A stretch of 64,000 nt of DNA from a virus (taxonomy: Duplodnaviria; Heunggongvirae; Uroviricota; Caudoviricetes). The stretch lies in the IMG/VR virus record IMGVR_UViG_3300014204_013127; one strand, given 5' to 3'. This document shows, piece by piece, positions 9,645-50,471 of the stretch (within the stretch, counting starts at the first letter, position 1; the number at the start of each line of letters is the position of its first letter). The notes beneath the pieces were generated by a model. The model was not told the origin of the DNA, searched no databases, and was given only the letters and a program-made list of their open reading frames with translations. The translations under genes were made by a program, and so were the position numbers.

Positions 9645-9690
9645 TTAGGTGCAGGGATTTTGATACAATAGCATCATCAAGGAACTAATT

Positions 9691-10959: not shown

Positions 10960-10971
10960 AGGAAATAAATA

Positions 10972-22271: not shown

Positions 22272-22618
22272 GGGGGTGAATAGAATCGAACGACGGTTTT
22301 AGCCCTTGAGTTGCATGTCATGGCTGACCAACAGGCCATGTAAAAAAGTTGGTCAAAAATTTAGTTGCTAACGATTACGTTGCACTGGCTGCGTGAGTGG
22401 CCACGGGTTGAGGAAGCTCGCCAAGGCGTCCAAAAACCCGTCAAAAATTTGGCTGCGTTCAATGTAGATGGCGTAAATTGAACTAAGATAACGCCGATAG
22501 GTCGTATGAGCCTTTGCTTGCTGTGGCTTATACAGACGACATAAACGGCAAGATACACATGTAGAAACTCATTGGCGTGCCGTGCGTGACCTGGGTGCGA
22601 TTCCCAGCACCTCCACTA
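22272..22618 (+). ncRNA. ssrA: tmRNA (SsrA), standard one-piece form; tag reading frame GCT AAC GAT TAC GTT GCA CTG GCT GCG TGA = ANDYVALAA
   Basis: The 5' GGGGGTGAATAGAATCGAACGACGG parallels E. coli GGGGCTGATTCTGGATTCGACGGG. The 3' end has T-stem CTGGG/CCCAG, loop TGCGATT and acceptor strand CACCTCC-A (22608-22615). That strand pairs with GGGGGTG (22272-22278) and includes the G3:U70 wobble that is the Ala identity element. The tag ORF at 22367-22396 ends in ALAA plus a stop. Confidence 0.8.
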
Positions 22619-23998: not shown

Positions 23999-25338
23999 AG
24001 CGTAGTAGTGTTTATTCTGAACCCTCGTATCAAGGAGAGAACTCAATGGACCCGAGAAAAGTGTTGTTGTTGTTGGTTTCTGTGATTTTGTGTGTTGTTG
24101 TGTGTTTTAGTTTGTTTGGATTTTTTGAGAACTTGGACGCCAAACAACTTATGGTAATTCAGAGCCCGGTCAAAGGCCAACTAGATTGGTACACATCACA
24201 GGGCGTGAAGTATCAAGGATTCGGCAAAGTAACTTGCTATGATAGACGGTCACAGTTTTGGTTCTCTGCCAAGAATGACCAAGGGGCTGCTGCCGCAGAC
24301 AACTCTATCAAAATCCGATTCAATGACGGTGGGCATGCCCAACTGTCAGGCGGTATTAGTTGGGAGATGCCATTGGATGAAGAGCATCTAACACGTATTC
24401 ATCAGCAATATGGAAGCCATTTGGCGGTCGAACAGCAATTGATTCGCACAATCATCGAGAAGTCAATTTATATGACTGGCCCGACCATGAGTTCAAAGGA
24501 ATCTTATGCCGAACGCCGGAATGAATTGCTTAATTTGATTGAGGATCAAATCCAGAATGGTGTTTATCTTACCAAGACTACTCAAGAGCAGGCAACTGAC
24601 CCTCTTACAGGTGCTATTAAGACAATTGCCAAAGTTGAGTTAGTTACTGATAAGGACGGAAAGCCAAAGAGAGCAGAAGAAAGTCCTTTGAAGCAATTTG
24701 GGATTAAGGTTTTTAATCTTAGTATCAATGAAGTTGCATACGATCCGCAGGTTGAAGAACAAATTAGCCAGCAGCAAAAACTGACTATGCAAGTTCAGAT
24801 CGCTATGGCTACTGCGAAACAAGCCGAGCAGGAATGTATTACAACCAAGAAGCAAGGTGAAGCTAATGCTGCCAAGGCTGAGTGGGAGCAAAAGACAGTT
24901 GCCGCTAAGGAAGTTGCCAAGGCTGACCAGGACAAGACTGTGGCTGAAACTAAGGCGAAGCAGGAAAAGTCCGTGGCCGAAACCAAGGCTGCCCAGGAAT
25001 TGAAGGTGGCCGAGTTGGCAGCACAAGCAGCCGAAATGACAAAGAAAGAGCAAATTGCCTTGGGTGAAGGTGAAGCCAAACGTCGCACATTGGTGATGGA
25101 GGCTGACGGTGCTTTGGAAAAGAAATTGGCCGCTTGGGTTGAAATCAACAAGGCTTATGCCGAAGCTATTGCGAAGCATGAGGGAAGTTGGGTGCCGTCG
25201 ATTGTTATGGGAAATGGAGCAACTGGCACCGCAGGAGCACAAAATGGAGCTTCTGATTTGATCGCCCTGTTGACAGCGAAGACCGCTAAGGATTTGTCGT
25301 TGGACCCGAATATGGTTCAGCCTACTAAAAAGAAATAG
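23995..25338 (+). CDS. SPFH/band-7 (flotillin-like) membrane protein with long Ala/Lys/Glu coiled-coil repeats
   Basis: N-terminal TM, then MVIQSPVKGQLDWYTSQGVKYQGFGKVTCYDRRSQ (SPFH-like), then repeated VAETKAKQE/KSVAETKAAQE units. Confidence 0.4.
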   Translation: MKRSSVYSEPSYQGENSMDPRKVLLLLVSVILCVVVCFSLFGFFENLDAKQLMVIQSPVKGQLDWYTSQGVKYQGFGKVTCYDRRSQFWFSAKNDQGAAAADNSIKIRFNDGGHAQLSGGISWEMPLDEEHLTRIHQQYGSHLAVEQQLIRTIIEKSIYMTGPTMSSKESYAERRNELLNLIEDQIQNGVYLTKTTQEQATDPLTGAIKTIAKVELVTDKDGKPKRAEESPLKQFGIKVFNLSINEVAYDPQVEEQISQQQKLTMQVQIAMATAKQAEQECITTKKQGEANAAKAEWEQKTVAAKEVAKADQDKTVAETKAKQEKSVAETKAAQELKVAELAAQAAEMTKKEQIALGEGEAKRRTLVMEADGALEKKLAAWVEINKAYAEAIAKHEGSWVPSIVMGNGATGTAGAQNGASDLIALLTAKTAKDLSLDPNMVQPTKKK

Positions 25339-25361
25339 CGTCTGGGTCGGTGCCGAAGGCA

Positions 25362-25397
25362 AGCCCCGCTCATTTTCGGATGAGCGGGGCTTTTTTT
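25362..25397. terminator. bidirectional rho-independent terminator between convergent genes
   Basis: A 12-bp stem agccccgctcat/atgagcggggct with loop tttcgg, followed by TTTTTTT. Confidence 0.6.
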
Positions 25398-25398
25398 A

Positions 25399-25758
25399 TT
25401 AACTAATGTATGCAACGACTTCATATCGGCCTGATGGCATTTTACACCAGGATAGGTAGAGGGCATTGTTCATTGGGGTATTATCTTCTTTGCGAACAAT
25501 GTCAATGTTGGCCACTTGGCTTCTAGATTGTTCGCTGCCGCACTCTCCCCCGCCGACCAGCATTCCCGACCACGGGGTGCCATCTTCTTGCACGGCTTGG
25601 TAGCCCAGTTTTTCCAGAACGGCAAAGATTGGCGAGAGGGGTATTTTATCATGAAACCCTTTGGCAATTGCATTGATCTCTCGATTCATTTGCGACTTGA
25701 TAGCTGGTTTTATGGCTGCCACTCTAGCCATTTCCATAAATTGTTGAAAAGTTTTCAT
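25399..25758 (-). CDS. hypothetical protein
   Basis: 119-aa minus-strand ORF. Confidence 0.35.
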   Translation of the reverse strand: MKTFQQFMEMARVAAIKPAIKSQMNREINAIAKGFHDKIPLSPIFAVLEKLGYQAVQEDGTPWSGMLVGGGECGSEQSRSQVANIDIVRKEDNTPMNNALYLSWCKMPSGRYEVVAYIS

Positions 25759-25783
25759 TTTTAAATACCTCAGATTTTATATA

Positions 25784-25812
25784 TGGACATTATCAATCAT
25801 TTCTTTTATAAT
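25784..25812 (+). promoter_or_regulatory. sigma70-like promoter TGGACA-17-TATAAT
   Basis: TGGACA at 25784-25789, a 17-nt spacer, TATAAT at 25807-25812. A GGAGA ribosome-binding site precedes the ATG at 25851. Confidence 0.5.
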
Positions 25813-25850
25813 AACTCTGTAGAATTTTAACTTCAACAAGGAGATAAAGG

Positions 25851-26861
25851 ATGTCAGTTGAGAGTCAGCGAATATTAAATGATATTTTGGAAAAAAAAGG
25901 TAGCACCATCAATTTGGGGGCTATTATGACCAAGATGCCCAGAAATTCTCAAAACCCCTATGCTATAATGGATGAAGAAGAAGAAAAATTTGGACGTATG
26001 ACACAATGGACCACATCTGATGGTACTCGTTTCTTTCCTGCTGGAAAGACATTTCCTTTGCTATGTCCAGGTGTTTATGAAATTAAATTTTCTAACACCA
26101 AGGGATATTATTTTGAGAAGGTGCAGGTAAAAACAGAAGGGTTATTACGGTTTCCTGATAGCGAATCCGCAAAGGTTGTGGCAGAGATTCAGAACTTCTG
26201 GACAAAAGAGCAAACCTATGCCGATTTTGGGCTCACCTATCGCCGTGGATTGATTCTGTGGGGTCCAGCGGGTTCTGGCAAGAGTTGTACCATTCAGATC
26301 GTTATGGCCGATGTAATTGAACGTGGCGGCGTTGTGTTCAAGTTTAATTCTGTGCCTCATATGTTTTTGGAGGGGGTGCGATTATTCAGAGAAGTGCAGC
26401 CTGACACAAAGATTGTGGTATTGATGGAAGACATTGATTCCTTGTTGGAAGAGTACGGAGAGTCGGAGGTGCTCAATATTTTGGATGGTGTTGAGAAAAT
26501 TGAACGGGTGGTTTTTTTAGCAACCACGAACTATCCAGAGAAATTGGGGGATCGAATTATCAATCGTCCTTCCAGATTTGACAGAAGATTTATGATGCCC
26601 AATCCCAATAAGAAATGCAGACAATTGTATTTCGAGCATTTAGCGAAACAAAACCCCACCATTAAAATTGATATTGCCAAATGGACAAAGGATACGAGTG
26701 GTTTTTCTATTGCACATTTGAAAGAGTTGTTTATTGGGGTGTGCATTTTAGGAGAAGAATACAAGGATGCCGTGGAAACATTGAGAATTATGATTGAAGA
26801 GCGTCCCAAATCTGACGAGAGTGATGGATTTGGGTTTATTCCCAAGAAAAATGAGGACTGA
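25851..26861 (+). CDS. AAA+ ATPase
   Basis: Walker A GPAGSGKS, Walker B IVVLMEDIDSL and an SRFDRRF arginine-finger-like segment. Confidence 0.65.
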   Translation: MSVESQRILNDILEKKGSTINLGAIMTKMPRNSQNPYAIMDEEEEKFGRMTQWTTSDGTRFFPAGKTFPLLCPGVYEIKFSNTKGYYFEKVQVKTEGLLRFPDSESAKVVAEIQNFWTKEQTYADFGLTYRRGLILWGPAGSGKSCTIQIVMADVIERGGVVFKFNSVPHMFLEGVRLFREVQPDTKIVVLMEDIDSLLEEYGESEVLNILDGVEKIERVVFLATTNYPEKLGDRIINRPSRFDRRFMMPNPNKKCRQLYFEHLAKQNPTIKIDIAKWTKDTSGFSIAHLKELFIGVCILGEEYKDAVETLRIMIEERPKSDESDGFGFIPKKNED

Positions 26862-27388
26862 TGATGGAAATCATAGCCAAGCCAGGATATTTTGGCAAGG
26901 ATCGGACAAAGTGGGAGAAAATGTTTGATGCTTATTGTGGCGAGGGAAACTGGCAAGAATGTTGGGAGTTTTATGATGAAATTCTTACATTTAATGAGGC
27001 TGTTCTTTTGTATGATGTTTCTTATTTGCTGTATATAAAGGAAGATAAATATAGTATTTTTCATGGCATGGCCAGCCAATACAGAGACTGTTATGACAAT
27101 GATCCATCGAATGTAGTTTCTGGATGCAATCATGACACAAAGGCTGTGCCGAGGCATATTCAGGACGTATCTGTACGCCGGGCATTTCGGGCACTGGGGA
27201 TGCACTTCAATCCCAATGCTGAAAAATTATTGGAAATTAGAGGGCTTACCAGTTCTGGTTATGAGTTAAGTCCCATGAAGGTGCCATTTGTGTATCCAAA
27301 TGCTATTACAGGTGGCCCAGCGAGGGAATGGGCTGGAAAGGGCACAGTAGAAGAGTTTTGGCAAAGGAATAAGGTAATTGTATGTTAA
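26861..27388 (+). CDS. hypothetical protein
   Basis: 175-aa ORF whose start overlaps the upstream stop. Confidence 0.35.
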   Translation: MMEIIAKPGYFGKDRTKWEKMFDAYCGEGNWQECWEFYDEILTFNEAVLLYDVSYLLYIKEDKYSIFHGMASQYRDCYDNDPSNVVSGCNHDTKAVPRHIQDVSVRRAFRALGMHFNPNAEKLLEIRGLTSSGYELSPMKVPFVYPNAITGGPAREWAGKGTVEEFWQRNKVIVC

Positions 27389-27855
27389 AAATGGTTTGTA
27401 GTGGTGCCCAGACGGGGGCGGATTTAGGTGGGCTTATAGCCGCCGAGAAATTTGGGATAAAGACTGGTGGTTGGTGTCCCAAAGGGTGTAAAACAGAAGC
27501 TGGGACAAAACCAGAGTTGATTGAACGTTTTGGGCTTTGGGAAACCAATACGGATAGTTATGTGCCCAGAACTCACGCCAATGCCAAGATGGGCGATGGC
27601 ACAATACGATTCGCATTTGATTTTGACTCGGCGGGTGAAATATTGACTTCTCAATCTTGCAGCAGGTTTGAAAAACCAATCATTGATGTGGATGTGGAGA
27701 ATCCACGACCTGTGCAAGAGGTTGTGGATTGGATAAAGGAACACAACATAGAAACACTAAATATAGCCGGGAACAGAGAGAGTAAATATCCAGGGATGGA
27801 GAAGTTTGTTGTGAATTACCTTGGACAGGTTTTCACAACATTGGGTCATACATGA
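27382..27855 (+). CDS. SLOG-superfamily protein (molybdenum-cofactor-carrier/YpsA/LOG-like nucleotide-binding fold)
   Basis: CSGAQTGADLGGLIAAEKFGIKTGGWCPKG matches the GG.TGvD...l..A...gi..gGwcPkG signature of the MoCo-carrier-like SLOG family. Confidence 0.5.
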   Translation: MLKMVCSGAQTGADLGGLIAAEKFGIKTGGWCPKGCKTEAGTKPELIERFGLWETNTDSYVPRTHANAKMGDGTIRFAFDFDSAGEILTSQSCSRFEKPIIDVDVENPRPVQEVVDWIKEHNIETLNIAGNRESKYPGMEKFVVNYLGQVFTTLGHT

Positions 27856-28580
27856 AGATAATAATAGTAATTCGCCAGGATCAAGTATGGTCTCGTCAAT
27901 ATTTTCCATCTAGTTTTTACACAAAAGTATTTAGAGCAGAATTAGTCATTGACACATGGAATTCTTTGTTCAATATACCATATCACGAATTTAGAATTGC
28001 ACTACACGAAATACAGAAAGTTAATTTAGCGGACATTCAGGCCGATCTTGTCGTTTATGAAAATGATCCAAAAATGCAGGGTTTATTGAGAGATGAAAAT
28101 AATCTAATCTTACCGATTGATGATGATGATTGGTTTGATCCAAATATTTGTTGTGTTTTAAAATCTGCACAATTTGGAAGATTTATTAGGTGGCATTATT
28201 TGCGTTATTTTTACGGCAATTCCGTGCAATTGGCTAAACATCCATTTCCGACTTATCTTTTTGACTATCAAAGCAATAATTACGCATTCAGAACTCCTGC
28301 TAATTGGGATATGTATGGGCATGATGGCTCGGCAAATGACAATATCCCACGAGCAGAAGAGACATATCTTGAGCAAATATTATCAGTGCATAATTTCAAC
28401 CCATCCTCTTTGTCTGGTTATTTTAATCAACCAGATGTAAGAGATGTTATGGTTAAATCATATCGTTATTTTGATTGTGAACAATCGGAGCAAATGCAGC
28501 AAATGCCCAGTTGTTTTCATAAATATTCATTATTAATGTTTGATTTGTGGAAGCGATTAAAATTATTGAAAATGTTATAA
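27852..28580 (+). CDS. hypothetical protein with DXD-like motif (possible GT-A glycosyltransferase)
   Basis: LILPIDDDDWFDPN; otherwise uncharacterised. Confidence 0.3.
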   Translation: MKIIIVIRQDQVWSRQYFPSSFYTKVFRAELVIDTWNSLFNIPYHEFRIALHEIQKVNLADIQADLVVYENDPKMQGLLRDENNLILPIDDDDWFDPNICCVLKSAQFGRFIRWHYLRYFYGNSVQLAKHPFPTYLFDYQSNNYAFRTPANWDMYGHDGSANDNIPRAEETYLEQILSVHNFNPSSLSGYFNQPDVRDVMVKSYRYFDCEQSEQMQQMPSCFHKYSLLMFDLWKRLKLLKML

Positions 28581-29617
28581 TGCTTAAAATTGAACAAAGT
28601 AAATTCACAAAAAGAGCCGTTTTATACATTGGGTTTAAATGTAATTTAAGATGTAGATTTTGCTACTATGCAGATAATGTAACCGTGCCTAAAGAGTGGT
28701 ATTCTTTAGATTGTTGCAAAAGGGATGCTCATACTTTTAGGTCTGTATACAAAAATAAATTTGTAGACATTACTGGTGGAGAGCCAACCATCTATCCAGA
28801 CATTTTGCAATTGGTATCATATTGTAGAGAGATTGGACTAAGGCCAACCATTATAACAAACATGCAAGCTCTTGCCGATCTGGATGTTGCCAAACAATTT
28901 AAGGATGCTGGAATAGAGGATTTTTTGTGTTCTGTTCATAATTTGGGGGTTGCTTATGATGATGTCGTTGGTGTGAATGGCAGTTTTTCCAGGGTTGAGA
29001 AGGCGTTAGATAATTTGGTTCATTTGAGCATACCATTTCGCACAAATGTCACTATCAATAAAACTAATTTTAAAGCTTTAAAAAACATAGCAGAATTTGT
29101 ATACACAAAGGGGTGTCGCACAATCAATTATATTTCCTGTAATTTATTCAGAGATCATGATGAAACATTTGATTTAATAGCTCGTTTTTCTGAAATGAAA
29201 GATTGTTTACATGAGGCATTAAATTATTGCGATATACACAGCATGCATACTGCCGTAAGGTATATGCCATTTTGTTTTCTATATGGGCATGAAAACAAAT
29301 GTTATAATTATCGACAATTACCATATGACAACTACGAGTGGGATTATAAATCTTGGTCGGATGTAAACTCTTCCGCACCTGCACCAAAGGTGTCAAGAGG
29401 TTTGTATAATTTCATGGAAGACTCAGGTGCGTATGAACATTTGGCCAAAGTTTTTACGGGAGAAAGCTACACATATTCCCCCAAGTGCATGGATTGTAGA
29501 TTGTCTTTAATTTGTGACGGATTAAACAAGAATTATGCAAGAAAATTCGGAACAGAAGAGGTTTGTCCATGTCCTGGCGACAAAATAACAAAACCTGATG
29601 AATTTCTTGCTAAATAA
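28547..29617 (+). CDS. radical SAM enzyme with C-terminal SPASM/twitch-like Cys cluster (rSAM-1)
   Basis: The CNLRCRFCYY CxxxCxxC motif and the ITGGEPT glycine-rich SAM motif are present. The C-terminus reads CMDCRLSLICDG...CPCPG. Confidence 0.7.
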   Translation: MEAIKIIENVIMLKIEQSKFTKRAVLYIGFKCNLRCRFCYYADNVTVPKEWYSLDCCKRDAHTFRSVYKNKFVDITGGEPTIYPDILQLVSYCREIGLRPTIITNMQALADLDVAKQFKDAGIEDFLCSVHNLGVAYDDVVGVNGSFSRVEKALDNLVHLSIPFRTNVTINKTNFKALKNIAEFVYTKGCRTINYISCNLFRDHDETFDLIARFSEMKDCLHEALNYCDIHSMHTAVRYMPFCFLYGHENKCYNYRQLPYDNYEWDYKSWSDVNSSAPAPKVSRGLYNFMEDSGAYEHLAKVFTGESYTYSPKCMDCRLSLICDGLNKNYARKFGTEEVCPCPGDKITKPDEFLAK

Positions 29618-29620
29618 AGT

Positions 29621-30433
29621 ATGCTCAGTATTGTTGTTTTATACTCTACAGATCGTCACAGACAGCTTATTAATACGATTGATTGTCTGAATGATATGGA
29701 TTATGTTGCCACATGTGAAAAAATTTTATGTGTGGATGGACAAACAGACATACATCCAGAGGGGTGGAGAGTTTTAGAGATAGAGAGAAGAGGAAAGTTT
29801 TATCGGCTTGGCGAAGCCCTTAATGCAGCCATTGAGGCCAGTAGTGGCAATCACATATGGTACTTGGACAGCGATAGAATTCTTCCTACAAACTTTTTAA
29901 ACAATGCATCATTGATAGAAGATGGATTGTTTATCTTTCCCAAATATCTGTTTTCTTTTAAAGAAGATGTAGATATTTCTTCTATACGAATGGTGAGAGA
30001 TAATCCATATAAGCATGAGTCTTTATTGGTGCCGGATCATAGGGTAGAAAATGTAGATATTGTGGGGCATAAAAACCCGTTTGCTGGATGCGTATTGTTT
30101 GCAAAAAAAACTTATTGGGAATATGGGGGATTTAGTGCTGATTTTGAGGCATGGGGGTATAAGGACTATGATTTTTGGAGAAAAGCTATTGTTTGTGGCG
30201 GAAGATTTTTACCTATTGATTGTGTGGAGTTGCATCAAAAACACAATCTTTCCGACCAAAGACTTTATGACTTAAGCAATGTGTGGAGTTACTATTATTA
30301 TTGTAGCAAGTGGAAACTGCCCATTGATCCAAAAATCAGGGTATATGCCGGTCATTTACACCCTGAAAAACACAAAACATTGGATGATTTTTTATCTAAT
30401 GTGGTAGATAAAAATGAAGTGAAATTTAACTGA
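29621..30433 (+). CDS. GT2/GT-A-like glycosyltransferase
   Basis: N-terminal SIVVLYSTDR, then DXD-type WYLDSDRILP. Confidence 0.45.
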   Translation: MLSIVVLYSTDRHRQLINTIDCLNDMDYVATCEKILCVDGQTDIHPEGWRVLEIERRGKFYRLGEALNAAIEASSGNHIWYLDSDRILPTNFLNNASLIEDGLFIFPKYLFSFKEDVDISSIRMVRDNPYKHESLLVPDHRVENVDIVGHKNPFAGCVLFAKKTYWEYGGFSADFEAWGYKDYDFWRKAIVCGGRFLPIDCVELHQKHNLSDQRLYDLSNVWSYYYYCSKWKLPIDPKIRVYAGHLHPEKHKTLDDFLSNVVDKNEVKFN

Positions 30434-30434
30434 T

Positions 30435-31229
30435 ATGATTTTAAAGCCGATATTTCGATGGACAATTGGAAGGCCCTCAAGGGTTGGGTTTCATATTTTT
30501 GAGGAATCGGTCATTCAAACAATAAACGCATTGGGCAGAGATAATTTTGATTGGTTTGTGTGTTACAATAATTTGACTGAAGCACAGCTTGATAGGCTTA
30601 GAGAAGTTGCCAAAATTCATTTACTCACATTATATGAGCAGAAGATTTGTGATTGCCCTCTCTCACAGGAAAATCTCGGAACGCTATGGAAACTTTGCCC
30701 AGCTAGAATAAGGATAGAGTCATATGAAATTATAATGGATAATGATGTTGTAATTTGCAAACATTTGCCAGAAATAGACGATTTTCTTGGCGGCAAAAGG
30801 TGTTTGTGTTTGGATGAGCCAACTCGATATTTTGGACGATATAGTTGTTATCTACCAAAGACAAAAAAATACAACTCTGGTTTGATTGGATTGGTTCCTG
30901 GTCATGATTTTCAAAAAGATATATGTAGAGTGTGGCGTAAGTATGGCGAGCTTGAAAATTTAAACTCTGCGGACGAGCAAGGATTATTAGCATTGGTTTT
31001 TTTGCATAAGGATCAAATTACCATATCGAAAGACAAAATTCTTGAGCTACATCCCAATGAAATACACTTAGATAGTAAGGTGTGTTGTAGTTACAAAAAT
31101 TTTAACATGAATAATTTTGATGGATATCATTTTGTAGAATCTAATCGTAATCAATTTCACAGAGGGTGGAATTATTACAATTTGATAAAAAGTAACAGAA
31201 TTAGTAGATATAATAAGCCGCTTTTTTAA
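30435..31229 (+). CDS. hypothetical protein (possible nucleotide-sugar transferase)
   Basis: 264-aa ORF co-linear with the GT genes; it has DND/LDE acidic motifs only. Confidence 0.3.
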   Translation: MILKPIFRWTIGRPSRVGFHIFEESVIQTINALGRDNFDWFVCYNNLTEAQLDRLREVAKIHLLTLYEQKICDCPLSQENLGTLWKLCPARIRIESYEIIMDNDVVICKHLPEIDDFLGGKRCLCLDEPTRYFGRYSCYLPKTKKYNSGLIGLVPGHDFQKDICRVWRKYGELENLNSADEQGLLALVFLHKDQITISKDKILELHPNEIHLDSKVCCSYKNFNMNNFDGYHFVESNRNQFHRGWNYYNLIKSNRISRYNKPLF

Positions 31230-31239
31230 TGGTGTAATT

Positions 31240-32307
31240 ATGATAGAAACAGTAGAGCAAGTGCTGCAATCTTTGGATGAAATCAGAACATTTTTGACAA
31301 AATGTAAAGTTTGGGATGCCCAGTTTAAAATTCTACAATTAAAAGATTTGTTACATAGTGAAAGTTGGCCTGTTGCGGTGCCCCAAGAACTAATATGCAT
31401 GGAATCTGAAGATGATTTATTTGAACGTGCCGATTCAATCATTAATTTCTCTAATTGGGAGGTTGATGGCAAAAAGTTCTTAGATTTTGGTTGTGGCTTA
31501 GGACATGTTGCTGTTGTGGCTTCTCAGTTGGGATCACAAGCAGCAGGGTACGACATTGTGGAGAGTTCTTCTTTTGAGTGGGAAAAAGAGGGTAAGTATT
31601 TATTGACCACTAATTTTGATAAAATTAAAGCAATGTCGCCATTTGATTTTATCATGCTTTATGATGTTCTAGATCATTCAACTGATCCTGTAGGCATCCT
31701 AACCAAAGTAAGAGAGGTAGCAAATAAAAATACAGATATTTTTGTTCGTTGTCATCCGTTTTTATCAAGACATGGTGGACACTTATACAAACATATCAAT
31801 AAGGCTTATGTGCATTTAGTCTTTACAGAAGATGAGTTGCAAGAAATGGGATATGGTTTCGAAGGAAATTTTCAGAAAACAAATCAGCCACTAGTGACTT
31901 ATAGAGATTGGTTTAAACAGGCAAATTTATCGATAGTTGTGGAAGATGTTGTGCAAGATGTTTTGGAGCCATTTTTTAAAAAAGGCGTGGTTAAAGAGCG
32001 AATGCCCAAGTTTTCTTTTGATGGAGTTTGGGAACACTATGTTAATGGTCGAAAACACAGACGATTTGTGGCTTATCCAAATGGAACATTAAACACTCCA
32101 CAAGGTCCAGAAACTTGGTCCATTGATGGTTTAAATCTCAGTCTTAGATGGCCAACAGACAAAGGTATTTGGCGGGACGAATTAAAATTAAATGAAGATA
32201 TGACTCATTATGAGGGAACCAATCAAATAGGATATAAAATAAAAGGCGATAGAATAGAAAACATTAACAGTAGTTTTATTGATTTCACACTAAGGGCATA
32301 TGATTAA
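31240..32307 (+). CDS. class I SAM-dependent methyltransferase
   Basis: LDFGCGLGHVAVV is motif I (hh[DE]hGxGxG); an acidic motif II follows about 20 aa downstream. Confidence 0.6.
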   Translation: MIETVEQVLQSLDEIRTFLTKCKVWDAQFKILQLKDLLHSESWPVAVPQELICMESEDDLFERADSIINFSNWEVDGKKFLDFGCGLGHVAVVASQLGSQAAGYDIVESSSFEWEKEGKYLLTTNFDKIKAMSPFDFIMLYDVLDHSTDPVGILTKVREVANKNTDIFVRCHPFLSRHGGHLYKHINKAYVHLVFTEDELQEMGYGFEGNFQKTNQPLVTYRDWFKQANLSIVVEDVVQDVLEPFFKKGVVKERMPKFSFDGVWEHYVNGRKHRRFVAYPNGTLNTPQGPETWSIDGLNLSLRWPTDKGIWRDELKLNEDMTHYEGTNQIGYKIKGDRIENINSSFIDFTLRAYD

Positions 32308-32968
32308 TTATTTGGAAGTTTTTACAGTATGTGTGAATTATGGTGATTTCTTAAACATTTGCATAAGTGCAAATAAAAAGCACTTTGACAGATGGGTTGT
32401 TGTCACAAGCTCAGAAGATGAAAACACAAAAAACATATGCAAGAAAAGTGGTGTTGAGTGTGTGGAGTCTCGAAGATTTTATAATAATGGAGATAAATTT
32501 AATAAAGGAAAAGCACTAAACGATGTTATAAATCATTTGTTTAAGAAAGATTGGGTTCTTGCCTTAGATGCTGATATTATTCTTCCTGCTGATTTTAGGG
32601 AAATGATTGGTGCTAAAAAACTGAATAATGATTTTTTATATGGAGTTCCAAGGAAAAGTTTGGATACATGCCAATGTTGGACTGATGTGACTCCTGTAAT
32701 TTCGCCCTGGGGTTATTTTCAATTGTTTAATGGACATTCTGATGTTATGCAAAGGGCCAAGGTCTATCCAGAATCTTATCCCCATGCTGGAAATTATGAT
32801 TTGGAATTTGTGTCTTATTGGAACGGAAGACATAGAATGTTGGAAGATGTAGTAGTCGAACATATGCCACATGGGATTGTTGCAACAAATTGGTGTGGCA
32901 GAAGATCAAAAATATTATCCAAAAACGATGTTAGCACTTTCAGCAAATCGGTAATTAAATTCGCCTAA
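32300..32968 (+). CDS. DXD-motif glycosyltransferase-like protein (paralog A of a tandem duplicate)
   Basis: LEVFTVCVNYGDFL...KKHFDRWVVVTS...LALDADIILPADFRE. About 55-60% identical by eye to the next gene over its full length. Confidence 0.4.
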   Translation: MINYLEVFTVCVNYGDFLNICISANKKHFDRWVVVTSSEDENTKNICKKSGVECVESRRFYNNGDKFNKGKALNDVINHLFKKDWVLALDADIILPADFREMIGAKKLNNDFLYGVPRKSLDTCQCWTDVTPVISPWGYFQLFNGHSDVMQRAKVYPESYPHAGNYDLEFVSYWNGRHRMLEDVVVEHMPHGIVATNWCGRRSKILSKNDVSTFSKSVIKFA

Positions 32969-32970
32969 TT

Positions 32971-33618
32971 ATGTATTTAGAAGTTTTTACATCTTGCGTG
33001 GGTTATAGTGATTTTTTGGATGTGTGTTTATATTCAAACAAAAAGCATTTTGACAGATGGGTAATCATTACTTCGACAGAAGATGTGGCAACCAAGAGTG
33101 TGTGTAAAAAGCATCAAATAGAATGTGTTGAATCAAGTCGATTTTATGAAGGCGGTGCAGCATTTAACAAAGGTAAGGGACTAAATGATGCCATAAGTTA
33201 TTTGGATAAAAAAGATTGGATGCTTGCTTTAGACGCAGATATCATTCTTCCAGATAACTTTAGGGAAATAATCGAAGGATTGACTTTAGATAAAGAGTTT
33301 TTATATGGGGCGGTAAGGTATGAAATTGACAATATTTCTGGCAAACAAATGTATATTGATGGTGACAACATGCGTATACTTGGGTTTTTTCAGTTGTTTC
33401 ATGCTACGAGGCTAAAATACTATCCAGAAGATTGGGACACTGCTGGATGGTATGATGATGTGTTTGCAGATTACTGGGATTCTAAAAAAACATTACAAAA
33501 GTTGGTGATACAGCATATTGAGCATGGTGTGAGAACAACCAATTGGGAGGGCAGGAAATCCAAGCCTTTGTCGAAGACGGAAATAGGATCATTAAAGAAG
33601 TTGATTATAAAATTGTGA
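32971..33618 (+). CDS. DXD-motif glycosyltransferase-like protein (paralog B)
   Basis: LEVFTSCVGYSDFL...KKHFDRWVIITS...LALDADIILPDNFRE; tandem duplicate of 32300-32968. Confidence 0.4.
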   Translation: MYLEVFTSCVGYSDFLDVCLYSNKKHFDRWVIITSTEDVATKSVCKKHQIECVESSRFYEGGAAFNKGKGLNDAISYLDKKDWMLALDADIILPDNFREIIEGLTLDKEFLYGAVRYEIDNISGKQMYIDGDNMRILGFFQLFHATRLKYYPEDWDTAGWYDDVFADYWDSKKTLQKLVIQHIEHGVRTTNWEGRKSKPLSKTEIGSLKKLIIKL

Positions 33619-34729
33619 TGCCAGAATATGATTGGTAAGGAATGTTATTGGAATTGCGGTAAAAGCAAATTAGTTTTCTTCCAATTACGAGATATTTGTT
33701 TCTTACAAAATTAGTTCTACCTTCAAACAATGTGTTGATGGCATCTTTGTCATGTTGTGATATATTTCCAATATATAATATATCAATAGTTTCTTGCCCT
33801 GTTTGAACAAACTGAAGGTTTAAATAGCAAGAATCTAATTTTTCTATAAAACTTGGTTCGTATATTATTTTATTGTTTATTTTTATTGCATTGTTGACAT
33901 GCGGTATAAATTTGAAGTTTAAATATGACTTTCCACAATTACACACTCTGACTTGCGGATTGATTTCAAATAAATCATCAGATTCAATTTGATTATTTGC
34001 AAGATTGATTAAGCTTGTGTTTCCAGAAAAAGTTGGAAAAAAATGCAATGTGCGAAATGGGCAGGTGTAAAAGTTAGATGTGATTGACCAATCAACCATG
34101 TTGTTATTAAGGTGGATCGAGGATGGTATTTTGCTGGATTTGAAAAAAGGCTCCCAATCTAAAGTACGGATAGCAAGTATTTTGTCTTGTTTTAAGAACT
34201 CTAAGAAACTTTTTTGTTCTAATAGAAAAAGTAGTGTATTAGAGACGGTGCTGATAGTGATTGGCTCTTTTACGCTATGAAGGAAATTTATCAAAAAAGA
34301 TAGGGCATTGTTTTGGTCCCAATAAAAAATGCCAGCATAATCCATAAGAGAATTATCTTTAACACGCATAATAGCATTTTTTTTATCTCCGCAAGGAAAC
34401 ATTGATTGAATGTATATTGTTTTCCCTATGCTTGGCTTGATTGCAGACTCCATGCTATTGATCCAAAAATCGAAAAACGGACCAAATTTATATTCCCGAG
34501 GTATATTTGTGGAGCCATTTGTCCTTAGAGAAATTGAACTAAAATTTTTACAATCCTCACGGGCAGCTTTTACATCTGAAGCAAAATCGACATAATCGCA
34601 AAAGTTATAGGACTGAATTTCTTGCCATAAAAGTTTGGCACTTTCAAGGGTTGGGTTTTTGTAATATTGATTATAACATTGCAAAAGATTCATTAGGTTA
34701 TTGAAATTGTATATACGGGGCAAGCACAA
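33605..34729 (-). CDS. hypothetical protein (Asn/Ser-rich, TTG start per the ORF track)
   Basis: 374 aa, minus strand, downstream of rSAM-2 and the small peptide. No recognisable motif. Confidence 0.35.
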   Translation of the reverse strand: MCLPRIYNFNNLMNLLQCYNQYYKNPTLESAKLLWQEIQSYNFCDYVDFASDVKAAREDCKNFSSISLRTNGSTNIPREYKFGPFFDFWINSMESAIKPSIGKTIYIQSMFPCGDKKNAIMRVKDNSLMDYAGIFYWDQNNALSFLINFLHSVKEPITISTVSNTLLFLLEQKSFLEFLKQDKILAIRTLDWEPFFKSSKIPSSIHLNNNMVDWSITSNFYTCPFRTLHFFPTFSGNTSLINLANNQIESDDLFEINPQVRVCNCGKSYLNFKFIPHVNNAIKINNKIIYEPSFIEKLDSCYLNLQFVQTGQETIDILYIGNISQHDKDAINTLFEGRTNFVRNKYLVIGRKLICFYRNSNNIPYQSYSGITIL

Positions 34730-34863
34730 ACATAGCCAGCAGTAGAATTTGAATTGGTGCCCGCATTAATTTCCATACACAAGCACTCGTCCAGCAATTG
34801 TTGTAGTTTTTCTGCATCTGGACACTCAAAAGTGATTTTTTCTGCATCTGTTAGTGTTGTCAT
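34696..34863 (-). CDS. small Cys-containing peptide (56 aa) immediately downstream of rSAM-2; candidate precursor peptide
   Basis: Hand translation of the minus strand gives MTTLTDAEKITFECPDAEKLQQLLDECLCMEINAGTNSNSTAGYVCACPVYTISIT. The ATG (34861-34863) lies 12 nt after the rSAM-2 stop and is preceded by AAGGA. It is not in the ORF track because it is under 60 aa. Confidence 0.4.
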
Positions 34864-34875
34864 CATTTTTTTTCC

Positions 34876-36018
34876 TTAGCATAGTTTGTTGTCATTGGCC
34901 ATTTTTTGTATTTGGTGTTGAAGAGCTACTGGATCGCAAAAATTGCTTTTTCCCCCAACAAAATCCAACATCGCACAGCTTCCCCAGCAATACCCTGCTG
35001 CTTGACACTTCATGCATTTTGTGTCATTTAGCAAGGGCATGGTTTTTAAAATTAGGTCATTTCTTCTCTCTATGATTGTACTCAAACTATCTGATAAATT
35101 TCCTATCTTTGTATATGTATAATAATCGCTAAATATATTTTCTGTATAGTCGGTTAATAATACTTCATGTCTGTATTTACAACACCATGTAGGCGTGAAT
35201 ATAGGTTTTAACAATATATCAGCAAAAGATTTGGTGGTTTTCCTGCACTCGGAATGTGGTCCGATAAGCCCTATGTTTATTTGTTCAGGTTTAAATCCAA
35301 ACTGAAGAGCAAAGAGATAATATTCTTTTCGTAGTTCTGGTGTATTGGATGCATCGCCAAAAGAAGCTTTCAAATTGATTTTGTGCCTCAGTCCTTTGGT
35401 TATTAATATTTTCAAATTATTGGTTGTTTTTTCAAATGGACTCCAATTACCTGTGAGTGGTATTCTTTGTGCATCGTTCAACAAATCATTACCACCATCT
35501 AAACTAATGCTTAGTTGGCTTAATTTTTCAATTAAAGATAATCTTCTTTCATTTAGATCAATCGTTAGATTAGAGACCATGCCTATGTGTAAAATGTTTG
35601 CATGAGATTTGATCTTGTCTATAACTTCATGGCATTTTTCTTCTTCCAGTAGGTTTTCTCCACCATAAAAAAATATGCAGATATCTTTGACATTAGATCG
35701 TATTATAAAATCACAAATTTTATCAACATTTAATGGTTTTTGTTGCTTTGCTTCTAAAAGATGCGAGAAGTTGCAGTGTGTGCATCGTAAGTTACATTCC
35801 AATGTTGGTGCTATGTTAAAGTTTAGAAACTTTGGGGGGTCATGAATTATCAACAATTTCAACAAGGACTCTCTTTCTTGTCCCGATAAAAACAAATTGG
35901 ACTCCAACTCGTCAAAGGTCGCAGAAATGGGCAGTTGTTGCCTTGTGAGGGTGTTAAAATAGACTTTTTCCCCACTCTCATTGACAGTTTGGCAGACATA
36001 AAAAGATAGGTTTTTCAT
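34876..36018 (-). CDS. radical SAM/SPASM enzyme (rSAM-2) with ~80-aa N-terminal extension
   Basis: The CNLRCTHCNF CxxxCxxC motif is present. C-terminal CMKCQAAGYCWGSCAM...FCDP fits a SPASM Cys cluster. Confidence 0.7.
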   Translation of the reverse strand: MKNLSFYVCQTVNESGEKVYFNTLTRQQLPISATFDELESNLFLSGQERESLLKLLIIHDPPKFLNFNIAPTLECNLRCTHCNFSHLLEAKQQKPLNVDKICDFIIRSNVKDICIFFYGGENLLEEEKCHEVIDKIKSHANILHIGMVSNLTIDLNERRLSLIEKLSQLSISLDGGNDLLNDAQRIPLTGNWSPFEKTTNNLKILITKGLRHKINLKASFGDASNTPELRKEYYLFALQFGFKPEQINIGLIGPHSECRKTTKSFADILLKPIFTPTWCCKYRHEVLLTDYTENIFSDYYTYTKIGNLSDSLSTIIERRNDLILKTMPLLNDTKCMKCQAAGYCWGSCAMLDFVGGKSNFCDPVALQHQIQKMANDNKLC

Positions 36019-36040
36019 AATTTAAATTAGTGATTATCTG

Positions 36041-36069
36041 TTGATTTGATGCAAGCAAACTGATATAGT
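36041..36069 (+). promoter_or_regulatory. sigma70-like promoter TTGATT-17-TATAGT for the dnaE C-fragment (very short leader)
   Basis: -35 at 36041-36046 and -10 at 36064-36069. The ATG at 36082 is only ~6 nt past the predicted start site and has no SD. Confidence 0.35.
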
Positions 36070-36081
36070 GATAGTAGAATT

Positions 36082-38700
36082 ATGAGAGATTATAAAAAAG
36101 AGCTACAGTTGTTGTGCCAGCAAAAAATAGAGAGCTTAGGACTATGTTCAAACGCTCAATATGCAGATCGTCTGAAATTGGAGTTTAGACATATCGACTG
36201 GCAAGATGAGCACTATTATTTAGTGGATTTGTACGAAAGAAAATGTAAGTTTGCCAAAAATGAAAACAATATGTTGGTGGTCCATCTTTTAGGACTAGCC
36301 GATGAATTTGATATCAGCCAACCGCCAAAGTTTACGTTTATTGCCGAGTTCCCCGACATAGATTCAGATTTCTTGCCTGAAATTCAACAGTGGTTAAAAA
36401 ATGTCTGGGCTCCCCAAACCTTTGGGGCGGAATATGTTTGTAATATTGGTAATTATGCCACTTATGGCATCAAATCTGCTTTACAGGATATGGCCAGAGT
36501 TTATGGCTTGAGTCATGATGAAGTCAACACGGTTACCACCCAGATTGAAGATAAAGATGATGAAAATAAACCCATTACGTGGGAAAAAGCTTTGGAGCTA
36601 AACAAGGAATTGGCTGCTTATTGCGAGCAATATCCAGAGGTATATGATGCTGCCAAGCGATTGTATGGCAGGGTAAGGGGAATGGGCAAACATGCTGGTG
36701 GTTTGATTATTTCTAGCATGCCCTTGGCTGATTTTGTTCCATTGGTTGTGGACAAGCAAGGCAATCCGCTTTCAGCATGGACTGAAGGACTGCATGCTCA
36801 AGACTTGGCCCCTGTAGGATTGGTGAAAGTCGATGTATTGGTTATTACAAACTTAGTGCAAATAGCTAAGTGCTTGAAATTGATTCGTGAGCGATACGGT
36901 ATCGACAGGATGTGTAATTTAGAGGCACAGGATGATTGGTCGGACACAGAGAAGTACCAAAATGATCCTGATGCTATTGCTTTGGCAAACGAAGCAAAAT
37001 TAAAGTGCATTTTCCAATTTGATTCTCCCGGCATTAGGGATTTGGCAAAAAAGGGTGGTGTGACTTCATTTGATGATCTAGTGGCATTCACTAGTTTATA
37101 TCGTCCTGGTCCTATGGGCTCTCAACTCCACACCACCTATTGTAAGCGAAAAAAGGGCGAGCCATACGAGTTGCATCCATTGTTAAAGCCTATTTTGGAA
37201 AAAACATATGGGGTGATGTGTTACCAAGAACAGATCATGAAAATCTTCAATGTTATTGGGGGTTTTCCATTGCCTCAATGTTATAAAATTGTGAAGGCTA
37301 TTTCCAAGAAAAAAGGCGAGGTTTTCCAAAAAGCCAAAGTTCAATTTTTGGAACAATGCCAACAAAGATTGGATTATTCTGAGCAAGAAGCTAATGAATT
37401 TTTTGAGAGTATAGCAAAGTTTTCGGGATATGCTTTCAATTTAAGTCATGCTACTTCATATTCGTTTGTTTCTGCAATGCTGTTGTATTTGAAAGCTCAT
37501 TATCCTTTAGAGTTCTTTGCAGCTATTTTGAGTTGTGAAAAAAATGCTGACAAGATTAAAGAATACAGATTAGAAGCCCAAAGATTTGGGGTGCCGATCA
37601 ATCGTATTGATATCAATAAGTCGAAGGTTCATTTTGAAATTATAGACAATGAAATATATTTAGGGTTTGCGGACATTAAGGGTGTTGGTGATGAGGTTGC
37701 TGAAAAAATCGTGGCAGGACAGCCCTATAGTTCTTTTGTAGATTTTATGGAACGATTTGGCACTTATGCTGATGTTTTGAAGCCACTGATTGCTTTACGG
37801 GTTTTTTCTGATGAACCGATGGTTTTGTATGAATTTGCTGAATTCTATCGTTGCAAAAGCAAATCACGCAAAGATCGAGATAAGAGATATATTACTTCTC
37901 AACAAGATCGTCTAGATGAAATTATATCCTTAGTACAATCAGAATATGAGAAAATAATAGATGGCGATTGGTGTGCTCAGTTTAAAGACCTGAAGAAAAA
38001 GGAATTTATTGAAAAGCATAGTGCTATGTGTTTGGACGGCATGGCCGAAGATGTTTTTACAGCCATCAATCAATATAACAAATCTAAAGCCAACAATGAG
38101 AAAAAGGTAGCACTCGATACCGTTATCACAATGGATAATTGGAATCCATCGGGAAAAATAGATCACGAAATGCAGGTTTTATTATCACATCACTTGTCTA
38201 TTGCCGAAAACAAATATTATGGTTTTCCTTGGGATTATGTGTTGACGCAATCTCCTGATTATAAAGGAAGAACCTTTGAGGAGTTCGATATAGCAATTGC
38301 ACAGGGCGATCATGCCATTAAGCCGGTGGAGGTGCAGATAATAGAGAAGCCTCGAATTATGAAGTCTAAGAAAGGATACAAGGTCAAAGTTGTGGACGGC
38401 AATGGAAGAGCAGAAACTGTTACTATTTGGAAAGATGATTTTGAAAGATTTGAGGAAGAAATTGCTTGGTGGGAGCCGACATGCGAGTGGGGCAATTTAT
38501 TACAAATGAGGCTTAAAAAGCCTATGGGGGATTGGAAAGATTACACATTTGAAAGTTTCCCCAGAGAGCTTAGGAAAGAAATGGTGCCTAAGGAAAAAAG
38601 CCAAGATGGTCGTTTGAATGTTTTGCGTTGGCCGGAAAGTGCCATAGTCAAACAAGATGTAATAGATAAAATCAAGGAAGATTTTACTATTATAGACTAG
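36082..38700 (+). CDS. dnaE: DNA polymerase III alpha subunit, C-terminal fragment (palm catalytic aspartates onward, fingers, OB-like)
   Basis: FPDIDSDF is the PDFDVDF catalytic motif. GKHAGGLIIS matches GxHAxGvvI. YCKRKKGEPYELHPLLKPILEKTYGVMCYQEQIMKI matches the conserved fingers region. 872 aa, including an ~85-aa N-terminal extension with no DnaE counterpart. Confidence 0.8.
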   Translation: MRDYKKELQLLCQQKIESLGLCSNAQYADRLKLEFRHIDWQDEHYYLVDLYERKCKFAKNENNMLVVHLLGLADEFDISQPPKFTFIAEFPDIDSDFLPEIQQWLKNVWAPQTFGAEYVCNIGNYATYGIKSALQDMARVYGLSHDEVNTVTTQIEDKDDENKPITWEKALELNKELAAYCEQYPEVYDAAKRLYGRVRGMGKHAGGLIISSMPLADFVPLVVDKQGNPLSAWTEGLHAQDLAPVGLVKVDVLVITNLVQIAKCLKLIRERYGIDRMCNLEAQDDWSDTEKYQNDPDAIALANEAKLKCIFQFDSPGIRDLAKKGGVTSFDDLVAFTSLYRPGPMGSQLHTTYCKRKKGEPYELHPLLKPILEKTYGVMCYQEQIMKIFNVIGGFPLPQCYKIVKAISKKKGEVFQKAKVQFLEQCQQRLDYSEQEANEFFESIAKFSGYAFNLSHATSYSFVSAMLLYLKAHYPLEFFAAILSCEKNADKIKEYRLEAQRFGVPINRIDINKSKVHFEIIDNEIYLGFADIKGVGDEVAEKIVAGQPYSSFVDFMERFGTYADVLKPLIALRVFSDEPMVLYEFAEFYRCKSKSRKDRDKRYITSQQDRLDEIISLVQSEYEKIIDGDWCAQFKDLKKKEFIEKHSAMCLDGMAEDVFTAINQYNKSKANNEKKVALDTVITMDNWNPSGKIDHEMQVLLSHHLSIAENKYYGFPWDYVLTQSPDYKGRTFEEFDIAIAQGDHAIKPVEVQIIEKPRIMKSKKGYKVKVVDGNGRAETVTIWKDDFERFEEEIAWWEPTCEWGNLLQMRLKKPMGDWKDYTFESFPRELRKEMVPKEKSQDGRLNVLRWPESAIVKQDVIDKIKEDFTIID

Positions 38701-38729
38701 CTATATATGCTTGTCCTAAAGGAGGTACA

Positions 38730-38933: not shown

Positions 38934-38945
38934 TAAAGGGATAAG

Positions 38946-41342: not shown

Positions 41343-41391
41343 AATTTTTTAATTTGCTAACTTTCTTATATAGAACAAGAAAGGGTTTTTC

Positions 41392-50461: not shown

Positions 50462-50471
50462 GGAATATTTC

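Follow-up and report, generated by a model that had tools for sequence, protein, structure and literature searches.

Why does a huge phage carry, amid its replication genes, a compact run of sugar-transferring and methylating enzymes together with a radical S-adenosylmethionine (SAM) protein? The question is raised by a locus in the IMG/VR virus record IMGVR_UViG_3300014204_013127, of which we analyzed a window of 64,000 nucleotides (64 of the 340 kb of the contig). The source is a huge phage. The window has no nucleotide similarity to GenBank phages, and the closest relative of its DNA polymerase DnaE (42% identity) is encoded by the uncultured 595-kb phage LR756511 (locus L001). An earlier note on this DNA had described an accessory glycosylation and modification island at 27382-33618. 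We conclude that 27852-33618 is, very probably, a glycan-assembly operon of a type that recurs in jumbo phages. The more specific proposal, a cytoplasmic operon for glycan assembly and tailoring with a phage protein as the favored acceptor, has in our estimate an even chance of being correct.

The notion of an accessory block for sugar transfer and modification is borne out by its content of four GT-A-type glycosyltransferases (GTs), a methyltransferase, and a radical SAM protein, by its absence from the nearest relative, and by its distinct composition. Its extent had to be revised. The open reading frame (ORF) listing contains eight co-linear plus-strand ORFs in 27382-33618, here g1 to g8, instead of the nine counted previously from a list that itself held eight. 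They are tightly spaced: the g2 stop and the g3 ATG share the sequence TAATG, g1/g2 and g6/g7 form ATGA-type overlaps, and junctions without overlap measure 1-10 nt. The first of them, g1 (27382..27855; 157 aa), is indeed the SLOG protein that had been called, of the cpYpsA family (PF12694, 4e-35), and it shares the co-transcribed context of the block but is its neighbor, not its component. In LR756511, a stretch of 5.4 kb encodes an AAA ATPase (53% identical to that of the window), ORF products of 104 and 149 aa, and a full-length DnaE, and the 149-aa protein, located between the AAA ATPase and DnaE, is a YAcAr, cpYpsA-related SLOG protein (2e-10). Since LR756511 keeps SLOG at this position, we assign the gene to a conserved AAA-SLOG-DnaE backbone. 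No g1 relative was detected in any related glycan locus examined. YpsA-like SLOG domains of viruses occur commonly in jumbo phages, with a predicted role in processing immune signals of the cyclic ADP-ribose type, derived from ADP-ribose (PMC9503650).

The inserted block, lying among replication genes, comprises 27852-36018 and thus extends beyond the previous boundary onto the opposite strand, where it includes a convergent minus-strand cassette. Its guanine-plus-cytosine (GC) content of 0.345 is the lowest of all, as none of the other 79 windows of 8.2 kb falls below 0.379, with an abrupt step from 0.445 in g1 to 0.329 in g2. In LR756511, no such block is present between the AAA ATPase/SLOG genes and DnaE.

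Consensus scans, on which all promoter and terminator calls rely, located the best promoter-like site of 25300-41500 at 25784..25812 on the plus strand (TGGACA-17-TATAAT, an 11/12 match). This site lies in the intergenic gap ahead of the AAA ATPase gene (start 25851), behind a strong terminator-like hairpin at 25361-25392 that ends the preceding gene, and no terminator-like site was found between 26341 and 33618. Therefore, g1 to g8 probably share one transcript with the gene for the AAA ATPase and with an ORF of 175 aa, and 25784..25812 is the probable start of the transcription unit AAA-u4-g1-g2 through g8. The 175-aa ORF (26861-27388), situated between the AAA ATPase and SLOG genes, has no Pfam match, a backbone-like GC content of 0.413, and no counterpart detected in L001.

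On its other side, the block ends directly upstream of a C-terminal DnaE fragment. Here DnaE is divided between two genes with about 20 kb separating them, 14116-15453 (PHP/N-terminal part) and 36082-38700 (C-terminal part), which align to residues 3-433 and 406-1173, respectively, of the full-length LR756511 protein. Judged by these alignment coordinates, the junctions carry no intein-sized extension; inteins as such were not searched for.

Four soluble GT-A glycosyltransferases, g4, g5, g7, and g8, are supported in the block. At least five GT-like genes had been proposed, and the count is reduced by g2, for which neither Pfam nor PDB nor profile-profile comparison provides support. The g4 product (29621..30433; 270 aa) is a GT-A enzyme of the GT2/GT7/GT27 type with a DSD motif, assigned by Pfam (Glyco_transf_7C at 4e-5, 23.5 bits versus a cutoff of 23; sub-threshold GT2 at 2e-4) and by a PDB sequence match, its best solved relative by sequence being polypeptide N-acetylgalactosamine (GalNAc)-transferase 10 (ppGalNAc-T10; 7e-5). 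Structure prediction decided two of the domain assignments. The g5 product (30435..31229; 264 aa), a retaining-type GT8-like enzyme with the motifs D102-N-D104, N147-S-G, and E181-Q, has a GT-A fold nearest to GT8-type enzymes and resembles those of the LgtC, WbbM, and WaaJ type. D102-N-D104 is invariant in the alignment of its family, which comprises 412 cluster representatives, none carrying a Pfam domain. Neither g5 nor 90 members of this family matched Glyco_transf_8 or any other Pfam family, and PDB sequence and profile searches with g5 returned no match.

The remaining two GTs are the tandem pair g7 (32300..32968; 222 aa) and g8 (32971..33618; 215 aa). Their paralogy, proposed from the common LALDADIILP motif, is confirmed by 51% identity (E 3e-79), and both have the GT-A (Rossmann-like alpha/beta/alpha) fold, which the earlier note had suggested checking. 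We assign g7 as a GT2-like, inverting-type enzyme with the motif D90-A-D92, whose two aspartates do not vary among 13 sequences of the g7/g8 family. Being paralogous to g7, g8 is likewise taken as a GT, and it retains every family-invariant residue. The Pfam gathering thresholds for GT2 are not reached by g7 (PF13704, 24.0 versus 27.5 bits; PF00535, 20.8 versus 23.3) or by g8, which gave only a sub-threshold PF00535 match of 14.0 bits. A profile search of PDB with g7 yielded only weak matches to GmaR and MPG synthase; g7 resembles TarP-, SpsA-, and PglI-type enzymes. The family is small, with about 10 clusters. g7 and g8 are reciprocally best matches, and since metagenomic relatives follow only slightly lower at 45-50% identity, the duplication is presumably old. 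The net charge of the GTs ranges from -7 to +3, so that they are not basic. Single-sequence PDB searches with g2, g5, g7, and the convergent minus-strand gene g9 found no match, and GenBank phages yielded none either when g5, g7, and g9 were searched by tblastn.

The product of g2 (27852..28580; 242 aa) belongs to a rare family with five homologs only (six members with g2), in which R48, DDDDWF (90-95), and SNNYA (141-145) are invariant. It has no Pfam, PHROG, NCBIfam, or PDB match, and hhalign against the g5 and g7 families gave probabilities below 1%. The DDDD motif follows a predicted strand, and g2 occupies the position that a GT2 partner takes beside g3-type radical SAM genes elsewhere.

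The sixth gene, g6 (31240..32307; 355 aa), encodes a class I SAM methyltransferase, as had been called earlier (Methyltransf_23, 1e-11). Its conserved core spans residues 33-255; the final approximately 100 aa were found in this copy alone. LR756511 also carries a g6 match, elsewhere in its genome and with no other island gene near.

The radical SAM protein g3 (previously rSAM-1) is 345 aa long when translation starts with the ATG at 28580 (28580..29617), while the listed ORF starts with GTG at 28547 and encodes 356 aa. Its PF04055 match (3e-18) upholds the radical SAM half of the original radical SAM/SPASM assignment but not the SPASM half, as neither g3 nor its close relatives match PF13186 and the seven-cysteine SPASM motif (CX2CX5CX3C) is incomplete. 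In the family alignment, C32, C36, and C39 of the CX3CX2C cluster are nearly invariant. Toward the C terminus only C243, C314, C317, and C323 are conserved, corresponding to CX2CX5C without the fourth cysteine. Because just four C-terminal cysteines are conserved and PF13186 is not matched, we classify g3 as a twitch or partial SPASM protein.

For g3, about 90 full-length relatives and 111 viral loci were collected, and in sugar clusters the family is coupled to GT2 enzymes, either adjacent or fused. On the 113-kb contig L009, a methyltransferase 42% identical to g6 is followed by a GT2-like gene (243 aa) and a radical SAM gene whose product is 47% identical to g3. Protein P0014 is a fusion of a GT2-like and a radical SAM part, with a sub-threshold GT2 match. 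Loci L013 and L016 share the order GT4-GT2-radical SAM; judged by eye, L016 also carries an epimerase, a methyltransferase, and a nucleotidyltransferase, and the g3/GT2 pairs of both loci adjoin probable virion genes. A deltaproteobacterial metagenome-assembled genome (MAG) contains a fused g3 relative inside a nonulosonic-acid/GT2 cluster. The earlier hint at a decorated ribosomally synthesized and posttranslationally modified peptide (RiPP) needs correction as regards rSAM-1: its family pairs with GT2 enzymes in sugar clusters, and it has no resemblance to a peptide maturase; it is the other two radical SAM proteins of the window that are RiPP-like. Fused g3 relatives have N-terminal extensions, and we considered whether these might all be g2-like but rejected this idea, as they are heterogeneous: GT2-like in P0014, Rossmann-like in P0016 and P0022, and unassigned in P0025, the last three judged by eye. 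Among GenBank phages, g3 relatives were found only in the Campylobacter CP220 type (27% identity), where the gene is solitary among replication genes and thus uninformative.

Searched against PDB, the g3 family profile matched solved radical SAM enzymes in a generic way (SuiB, GDGT-MAS, viperin-like, BlsE, PqqE, MoaA, and DesII). With the sugar-tailoring members of the superfamily (BlsE, DesII, BtrN, AprD4), g3 shares the CX3CX2C core, the conserved C-terminal cysteines, and a genomic partnership with GTs and sugar enzymes, and its profile matched BlsE at 1e-19 and DesII at 2e-10. However, SuiB, GDGT-MAS, viperin-like enzymes, and PqqE score equally well or better, so that g3 has no specific affinity to this group, and there is no common cluster architecture. 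The combination of SLOG, GT, and radical SAM genes as a mirror of BlsM, BlsD, and BlsE, following a nucleoside-antibiotic logic, was rejected as well: g1 is a backbone gene that never accompanies the module, and the BlsE match is not distinctive. Distant g3 relatives (24-29% identity) were seen in IMG/VR loci L017-L091 from marine-type phages, many of which carry a conserved array with about five radical SAM paralogs per 20 kb. By eye, this array also holds a GT2, a split transketolase, an epimerase, a UDP-glucose-dehydrogenase-like gene, and a cysteine-rich protein with a fibre-chaperone-like C terminus.

Part of the island recurs elsewhere as a module. Relatives of g4, g5, g6, and g2 co-occur, often in multiple copies, in at least 15 IMG/VR jumbo-phage loci (within L095-L118, where ORFs were called by a simple longest-ORF script). 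Relatives of g4 adjoin those of g5 and g6 in 12 jumbo-phage loci; the 22 relatives of g6, from 12 loci with at most 3 per locus, are interleaved with relatives of g4 and g5; and L105 holds two g4, two g5, and three g6 relatives. Relatives of g5 were found on 19 IMG/VR contigs, many of them 177-527 kb in size, while a twentieth fetched locus, L113, gave no match in the later protein search and a smaller g5 alignment detected only five MAG loci in the genome collection. Relatives of g2 lie beside a carbamoyltransferase gene in both L103 and L114; in L092 and L093 they are solitary and uninformative. Further genes of the related loci encode UDP-galactopyranose mutase (Glf), an NAD-dependent epimerase, more GT2s, a sulfotransferase-like family, carbamoyltransferase, and radical SAM proteins. 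The large contigs among them were considered as giant eukaryotic viruses, a candidate origin that we discarded; because gp32, RecA/UvsX, DnaB, PolA, and helicases are encoded in the flanks, we regard these loci as phage loci.

In L115 (7980-9440), a 486-aa ORF joins a g5-like part (residues 7-233) to a g4-like part (256-461). This fusion, as Rosetta-stone evidence, suggests that the g5 and g4 families work together. It also accounts for a BLAST link that seemed to indicate homology of the two families: the link came from the fusion protein, and hhalign of g4 against the g5 family found no similarity. Other fusions of the g5 family, judged by eye, involve GT-B, FkbM-methyltransferase, and sulfotransferase-type domains. 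Among the relatives of g7/g8, two (35% identity; L004, 5894-6658; L005, 3720-4484) are located directly downstream of QueC in 7-deazaguanine DNA-modification clusters (FolE, TGT-like, QueE, QueC) from phage lineages that have diverged from each other, and a third phage locus places one among genes for dCMP deaminase, dUTPase, ribonucleotide reductase (RNR), Dam, and GTs. In L025, a relative lies beside radical SAM genes and a polysaccharide deacetylase gene; in L002 it stands alone.

How does the island compare with known phage systems? Variable clusters for polysaccharides and sugar modification have been described in jumbo phages, with a 15-gene cluster of cyanophage P-SSM2 as the prototype (Iyer, Anantharaman, Krishnan, Burroughs, and Aravind 2021; PMC7824862). 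As in those clusters, several paralogous GTs of different families are combined with methyltransferases in a large genome, here with three GT families within 4 kb, and carbamoyltransferases and epimerases occur, here only in the related loci. Those clusters occur sporadically and differ even from one related phage to the next; likewise, the present block is absent from the LR756511 site and the related loci differ in copy number. A PfkB-kinase/nucleotidyltransferase (HldE-like) is encoded elsewhere in the present genome. The island differs in that 27852-36018 contains no nucleotide-sugar synthesis gene, the HldE-like gene lying 26 kb upstream; in adding a GT-coupled, twitch-like radical SAM protein and the DDDDWF protein g2; in that g5 and g7/g8 lack a Pfam model or remain sub-threshold and have no relative in GenBank phage records; and in its insertion in a replication module beside a split DnaE. 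The density of sugar-transfer enzymes, which the earlier note considered unusual for a phage, turns out to be ordinary: relatives of g4, g5, g6, and g2 share at least 15 jumbo-phage loci, and since multi-GT clusters have already been described in jumbo phages (PMC7824862), such a density is not exceptional for this genome size.

A second comparison is offered by phage GTs that build up to trisaccharides of hexose, N-acetylhexosamine (HexNAc), or heptose on 5-hydroxymethylcytosine (5hmC) (Pyle, Lund, O'Toole, and Saleh 2023/2024; 10.1101/2023.12.21.572611). In those clusters the primary GT-A enzyme is of a JGT/TarP-like kind with R…DDD…EDY/F motifs, and GT8-like enzymes act as secondary GTs. 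Both systems combine soluble inverting GT2-type with retaining GT8-like GT-A enzymes near DNA-metabolism genes, and the present genome encodes a possible ADP-heptose-type sugar supply. Unlike those clusters, the present block has more GTs plus a methyltransferase and a radical SAM protein, and no C5-methyltransferase/5mYOX or thymidylate-synthase-like enzyme is encoded among the 52 ORFs of the window.

Virion glycosylation provides a third point of reference. In chlorovirus PBCV-1, A064R is a GT-GT-methyltransferase protein, and giant viruses possess clusters for fibril glycans. Freeman et al. are said to have described, in 2023, glycosylation of the capsid and tail tube in mycobacteriophages. 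In contrast to such systems, the present GT genes adjoin those for the AAA ATPase, SLOG, and DnaE and no recognizable structural genes. We know of no radical SAM protein in virion glycosylation by mycobacteriophages, chloroviruses, or giant viruses.

New in this locus are enzyme families that lack a Pfam model or stay sub-threshold and have neither a characterized member nor a relative in an isolated phage, except for the distant CP220-type radical SAM protein. New, too, are the repeated coupling of a twitch-like radical SAM protein to GT2 enzymes, including fusions, as well as the unassigned g2 and the placement of the insertion, which also holds a RiPP-like cassette, in the replication module next to a split DnaE. 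Large phages carry many GT clusters, and with its seven or eight soluble enzymes the island is a compact test case, which joins uncharacterized families (GT8-like, small GT2-like, methyltransferase, GT2-coupled radical SAM) in a recurrent module. Knowing the acceptor would show what role glycans play for huge phages in infection or in evading defenses, and the GT-coupled radical SAM protein may represent new sugar chemistry. If the block merely reshuffles known cluster types, its description is a useful annotation and no surprise.

The minus-strand cassette of the block starts with rSAM-2 (34876..36018; 380 aa), a radical SAM/SPASM protein of the peptide-maturase type (PF04055, 9e-10) with the canonical CX2CX5CX3C motif, whose best NCBIfam matches are the maturases PapB, HxsB, and CcpM. 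It is followed by a candidate precursor peptide of 57 aa with five cysteines (…CLCMEINAGTNSNSTAGYVCACPVYTISIT; 34693..34866), preceded at 8 nt by an AAGGA ribosome-binding site; the public assembly, too, contains a gene call for it. Its stop codon overlaps the ATG of g9 (TAATG). The last gene of the cassette, g9 (33605..34693; GC 0.318), overlaps the 3' end of g8 by 14 nt and encodes a 362-aa orphan, independently called with the same length. g9 had no match in any library or collection and no relatives in IMG/VR or JGI metagenomes, where rSAM-2 likewise had no close relatives, and no cluster homologous to the cassette was found. Judging from a collinear similarity to an F390-synthetase-related protein encoded at 40239-41342, which is weak and not significant (E 0.18), g9 may be a degenerate adenylate-forming enzyme.

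A second RiPP-like cassette follows directly after the C-terminal DnaE gene (38730-41342), so that the two cassettes flank this DnaE fragment. It consists of a 67-aa ORF ending in SSVCGCSGCCSNMVA, a radical SAM/SPASM maturase (38946-40277; TIGR04463, 2e-57; CefB, 4e-53), and the convergent gene for the 367-aa F390-synthetase-related protein (40239-41342), which has a TSGTTG motif.

What might the plus-strand operon make, and on what? All island proteins are soluble, the highest 19-residue Kyte-Doolittle mean being 1.22, and the island contains no initiating transferase, flippase, polymerase, exporter, or nucleotide-sugar enzyme. As there is no hydrophobic segment, exporter, or nucleotide-sugar enzyme, the enzymes probably act in the cytoplasm on host donors and an accessible acceptor. 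The GTs would add sugars sequentially from nucleotide sugars of the host, since the island makes none itself, and mixed linkages would result, with g5 being retaining and g4, g7, and g8 of the inverting type. g6 might O-methylate a sugar, and g3, translationally coupled to g2, could perform a radical tailoring of a sugar unit (oxidation, epimerization, dehydration, or decarboxylation). A short hetero-oligosaccharide carrying such decorations would be expected to result. The HldE-like heptose-7-phosphate kinase/heptose-1-phosphate adenylyltransferase (418-1821; NF008454 at 3e-63, below the curated cutoff) is a possible phage-encoded source of ADP-heptose for the GTs.

We estimate the acceptors to rank in the order phage protein, host envelope glycan, DNA, and RiPP. 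Tentatively, the single most likely one is a protein of the phage itself, for example from the virion or its fibres; mycobacteriophage virions and chlorovirus A064R serve as precedents, the structural neighbors include cytoplasmic protein-glycan enzymes, and the g3/GT2 pairs of relatives lie beside probable virion genes. It is conceivable that the G8-domain protein encoded at 42467-43780 is glycosylated. This candidate fibre- or depolymerase-like protein contains 22% Ser+Thr and has a Gly/Thr/Ser-rich N terminus. Several observations speak against this preferred interpretation. No virion gene was recognized in the window and no acceptor was identified, and the island lacks nucleotide-sugar genes. 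The g3 family matches solved radical SAM enzymes only generically, and g2 matches no known family. The apparent co-transcription with replication-proximal genes suits an early function, on DNA or the host surface, better than virion decoration, and in three other phage loci g7/g8 relatives are situated beside 7-deazaguanine or nucleotide-metabolism genes.

If early expression is taken at face value, the GTs, methyltransferase, and radical SAM protein might instead alter intermediates of the lipopolysaccharide (LPS) core, O-antigen, or capsule at the cytoplasmic face, to be delivered by host exporters; the changed surface could block superinfection or re-adsorption of progeny. This is the function proposed for the variable GT clusters of jumbo phages (PMC7824862), and the bacterial enzymes resembled by g5 (LgtC, WbbM, WaaJ) and g7 (TarP, SpsA, PglI), the UDP-galactopyranose mutase, carbamoyltransferase, and sulfotransferase-like genes of related loci, typical for surface polysaccharides, the HldE-like ADP-heptose enzyme of the same genome, and the bacterial g3 relative within a nonulosonic-acid/GT2 surface-glycan cluster fit it. 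We nevertheless hold this remodeling of host glycans to be a somewhat unlikely alternative, as the island encodes no initiating phosphoglycosyltransferase, flippase, polymerase, ligase, or ABC exporter and its proteins have no membrane-associated segment, and what a lytic huge phage would gain from it is a matter of conjecture. Early timing and a position between replication genes of the same orientation would also suit hypermodification of DNA, in which a GT-A enzyme would glycosylate a hydroxymethylated or otherwise reactive base, and the other GTs, the methyltransferase, and the radical SAM protein would lengthen and tailor the glycan, shielding the genome from host nucleases. Phage GT2-type GT-A and GT8-like enzymes do build mono- to trisaccharides on 5hmC (10.1101/2023.12.21.572611); g7/g8 relatives directly follow QueC in two phage lineages and neighbor dCMP deaminase, dUTPase, RNR, and Dam genes in a third; g4 and g5 relatives occur near gp32, UvsX, DnaB, and PolA; and the window itself encodes dCMP deaminase, dUTPase, and the HldE-like enzyme. 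DNA as the target is nonetheless unlikely. No thymidylate-synthase-like hydroxymethylase, C5-methyltransferase, or TET/JBP dioxygenase was found among the 52 ORFs scanned, that is, in 64 of 340 kb, g6 falls outside the DNA methyltransferase families, and the GTs are not basic. Moreover, four or five GTs plus a methyltransferase and a radical SAM protein exceed any known DNA glycan, and related loci with about 10 GTs, three methyltransferases, Glf, and carbamoyltransferase resemble polysaccharide machinery. Were it true, the same enzymes would build a tetra- or pentasaccharide on phage DNA, which would be nearly as novel as the glycosylated RiPP considered next.

A peptide or small molecule as the acceptor is quite improbable in general. 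Its most elaborate version, even less probable, treats the whole of 27852-36018 as one unit, in which the minus-strand cassette makes a cross-linked peptide and the plus-strand operon adds a methylated, radical-tailored oligosaccharide to it; the g3-type protein would then be a new class of glycan-tailoring radical enzyme. Such a unit is suggested by the sharing of one low-GC insertion with overlapping 3' ends, by the canonical SPASM motif and RiPP-maturase matches of rSAM-2, by the ribosome-binding site of the peptide ORF and its translational coupling to g9, and by the second such cassette just past the C-terminal DnaE gene. Against this, none of more than 100 related glycan or radical SAM loci contains a g9 relative, no small-peptide cassette was recognized in them, and their rSAM-2 matches reflect weak, generic radical SAM similarity. 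g9 and rSAM-2 have no detectable relatives in which conservation of the peptide could be checked, four GTs acting on one short peptide would be unprecedented, and the g3 family is tied to sugar clusters, not to peptides. A glycan-assembly operon, with a phage protein as its favored acceptor, remains our preferred reading of the plus-strand genes.

Several other genes of the window were noted in addition. A further GT2 gene lies outside the island at 57034-57771 (PF00535, 2e-13; weak MftF-like match), adjoining the dUTPase gene (55891-56568), with the dCMP deaminase gene (49129-49647) 7 kb upstream. The region 4915-12570 carries a triad of PrkA kinase, DUF444 (YeaH-like), and SpoVR-like genes, the SpoVR-like protein being 57% identical to that of LR756511; near it, an M28 peptidase is encoded at 3756-4769 and a truncated, GluQRS-like glutamyl-tRNA synthetase at 7894-8610. 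Host-like auxiliary genes encode peptide deformylase (46757-47290), translation initiation factor IF3 (52038-52559), DnaJ (54131-55132), PhoH (59984-60628), and a thiamine pyrophosphate (TPP)-dependent enzyme resembling indolepyruvate/phenylpyruvate decarboxylases (50430-52034). In addition, the phage encodes a tmRNA at 22272-22618, matched by Rfam RF00023 over its full length with 119.6 bits.

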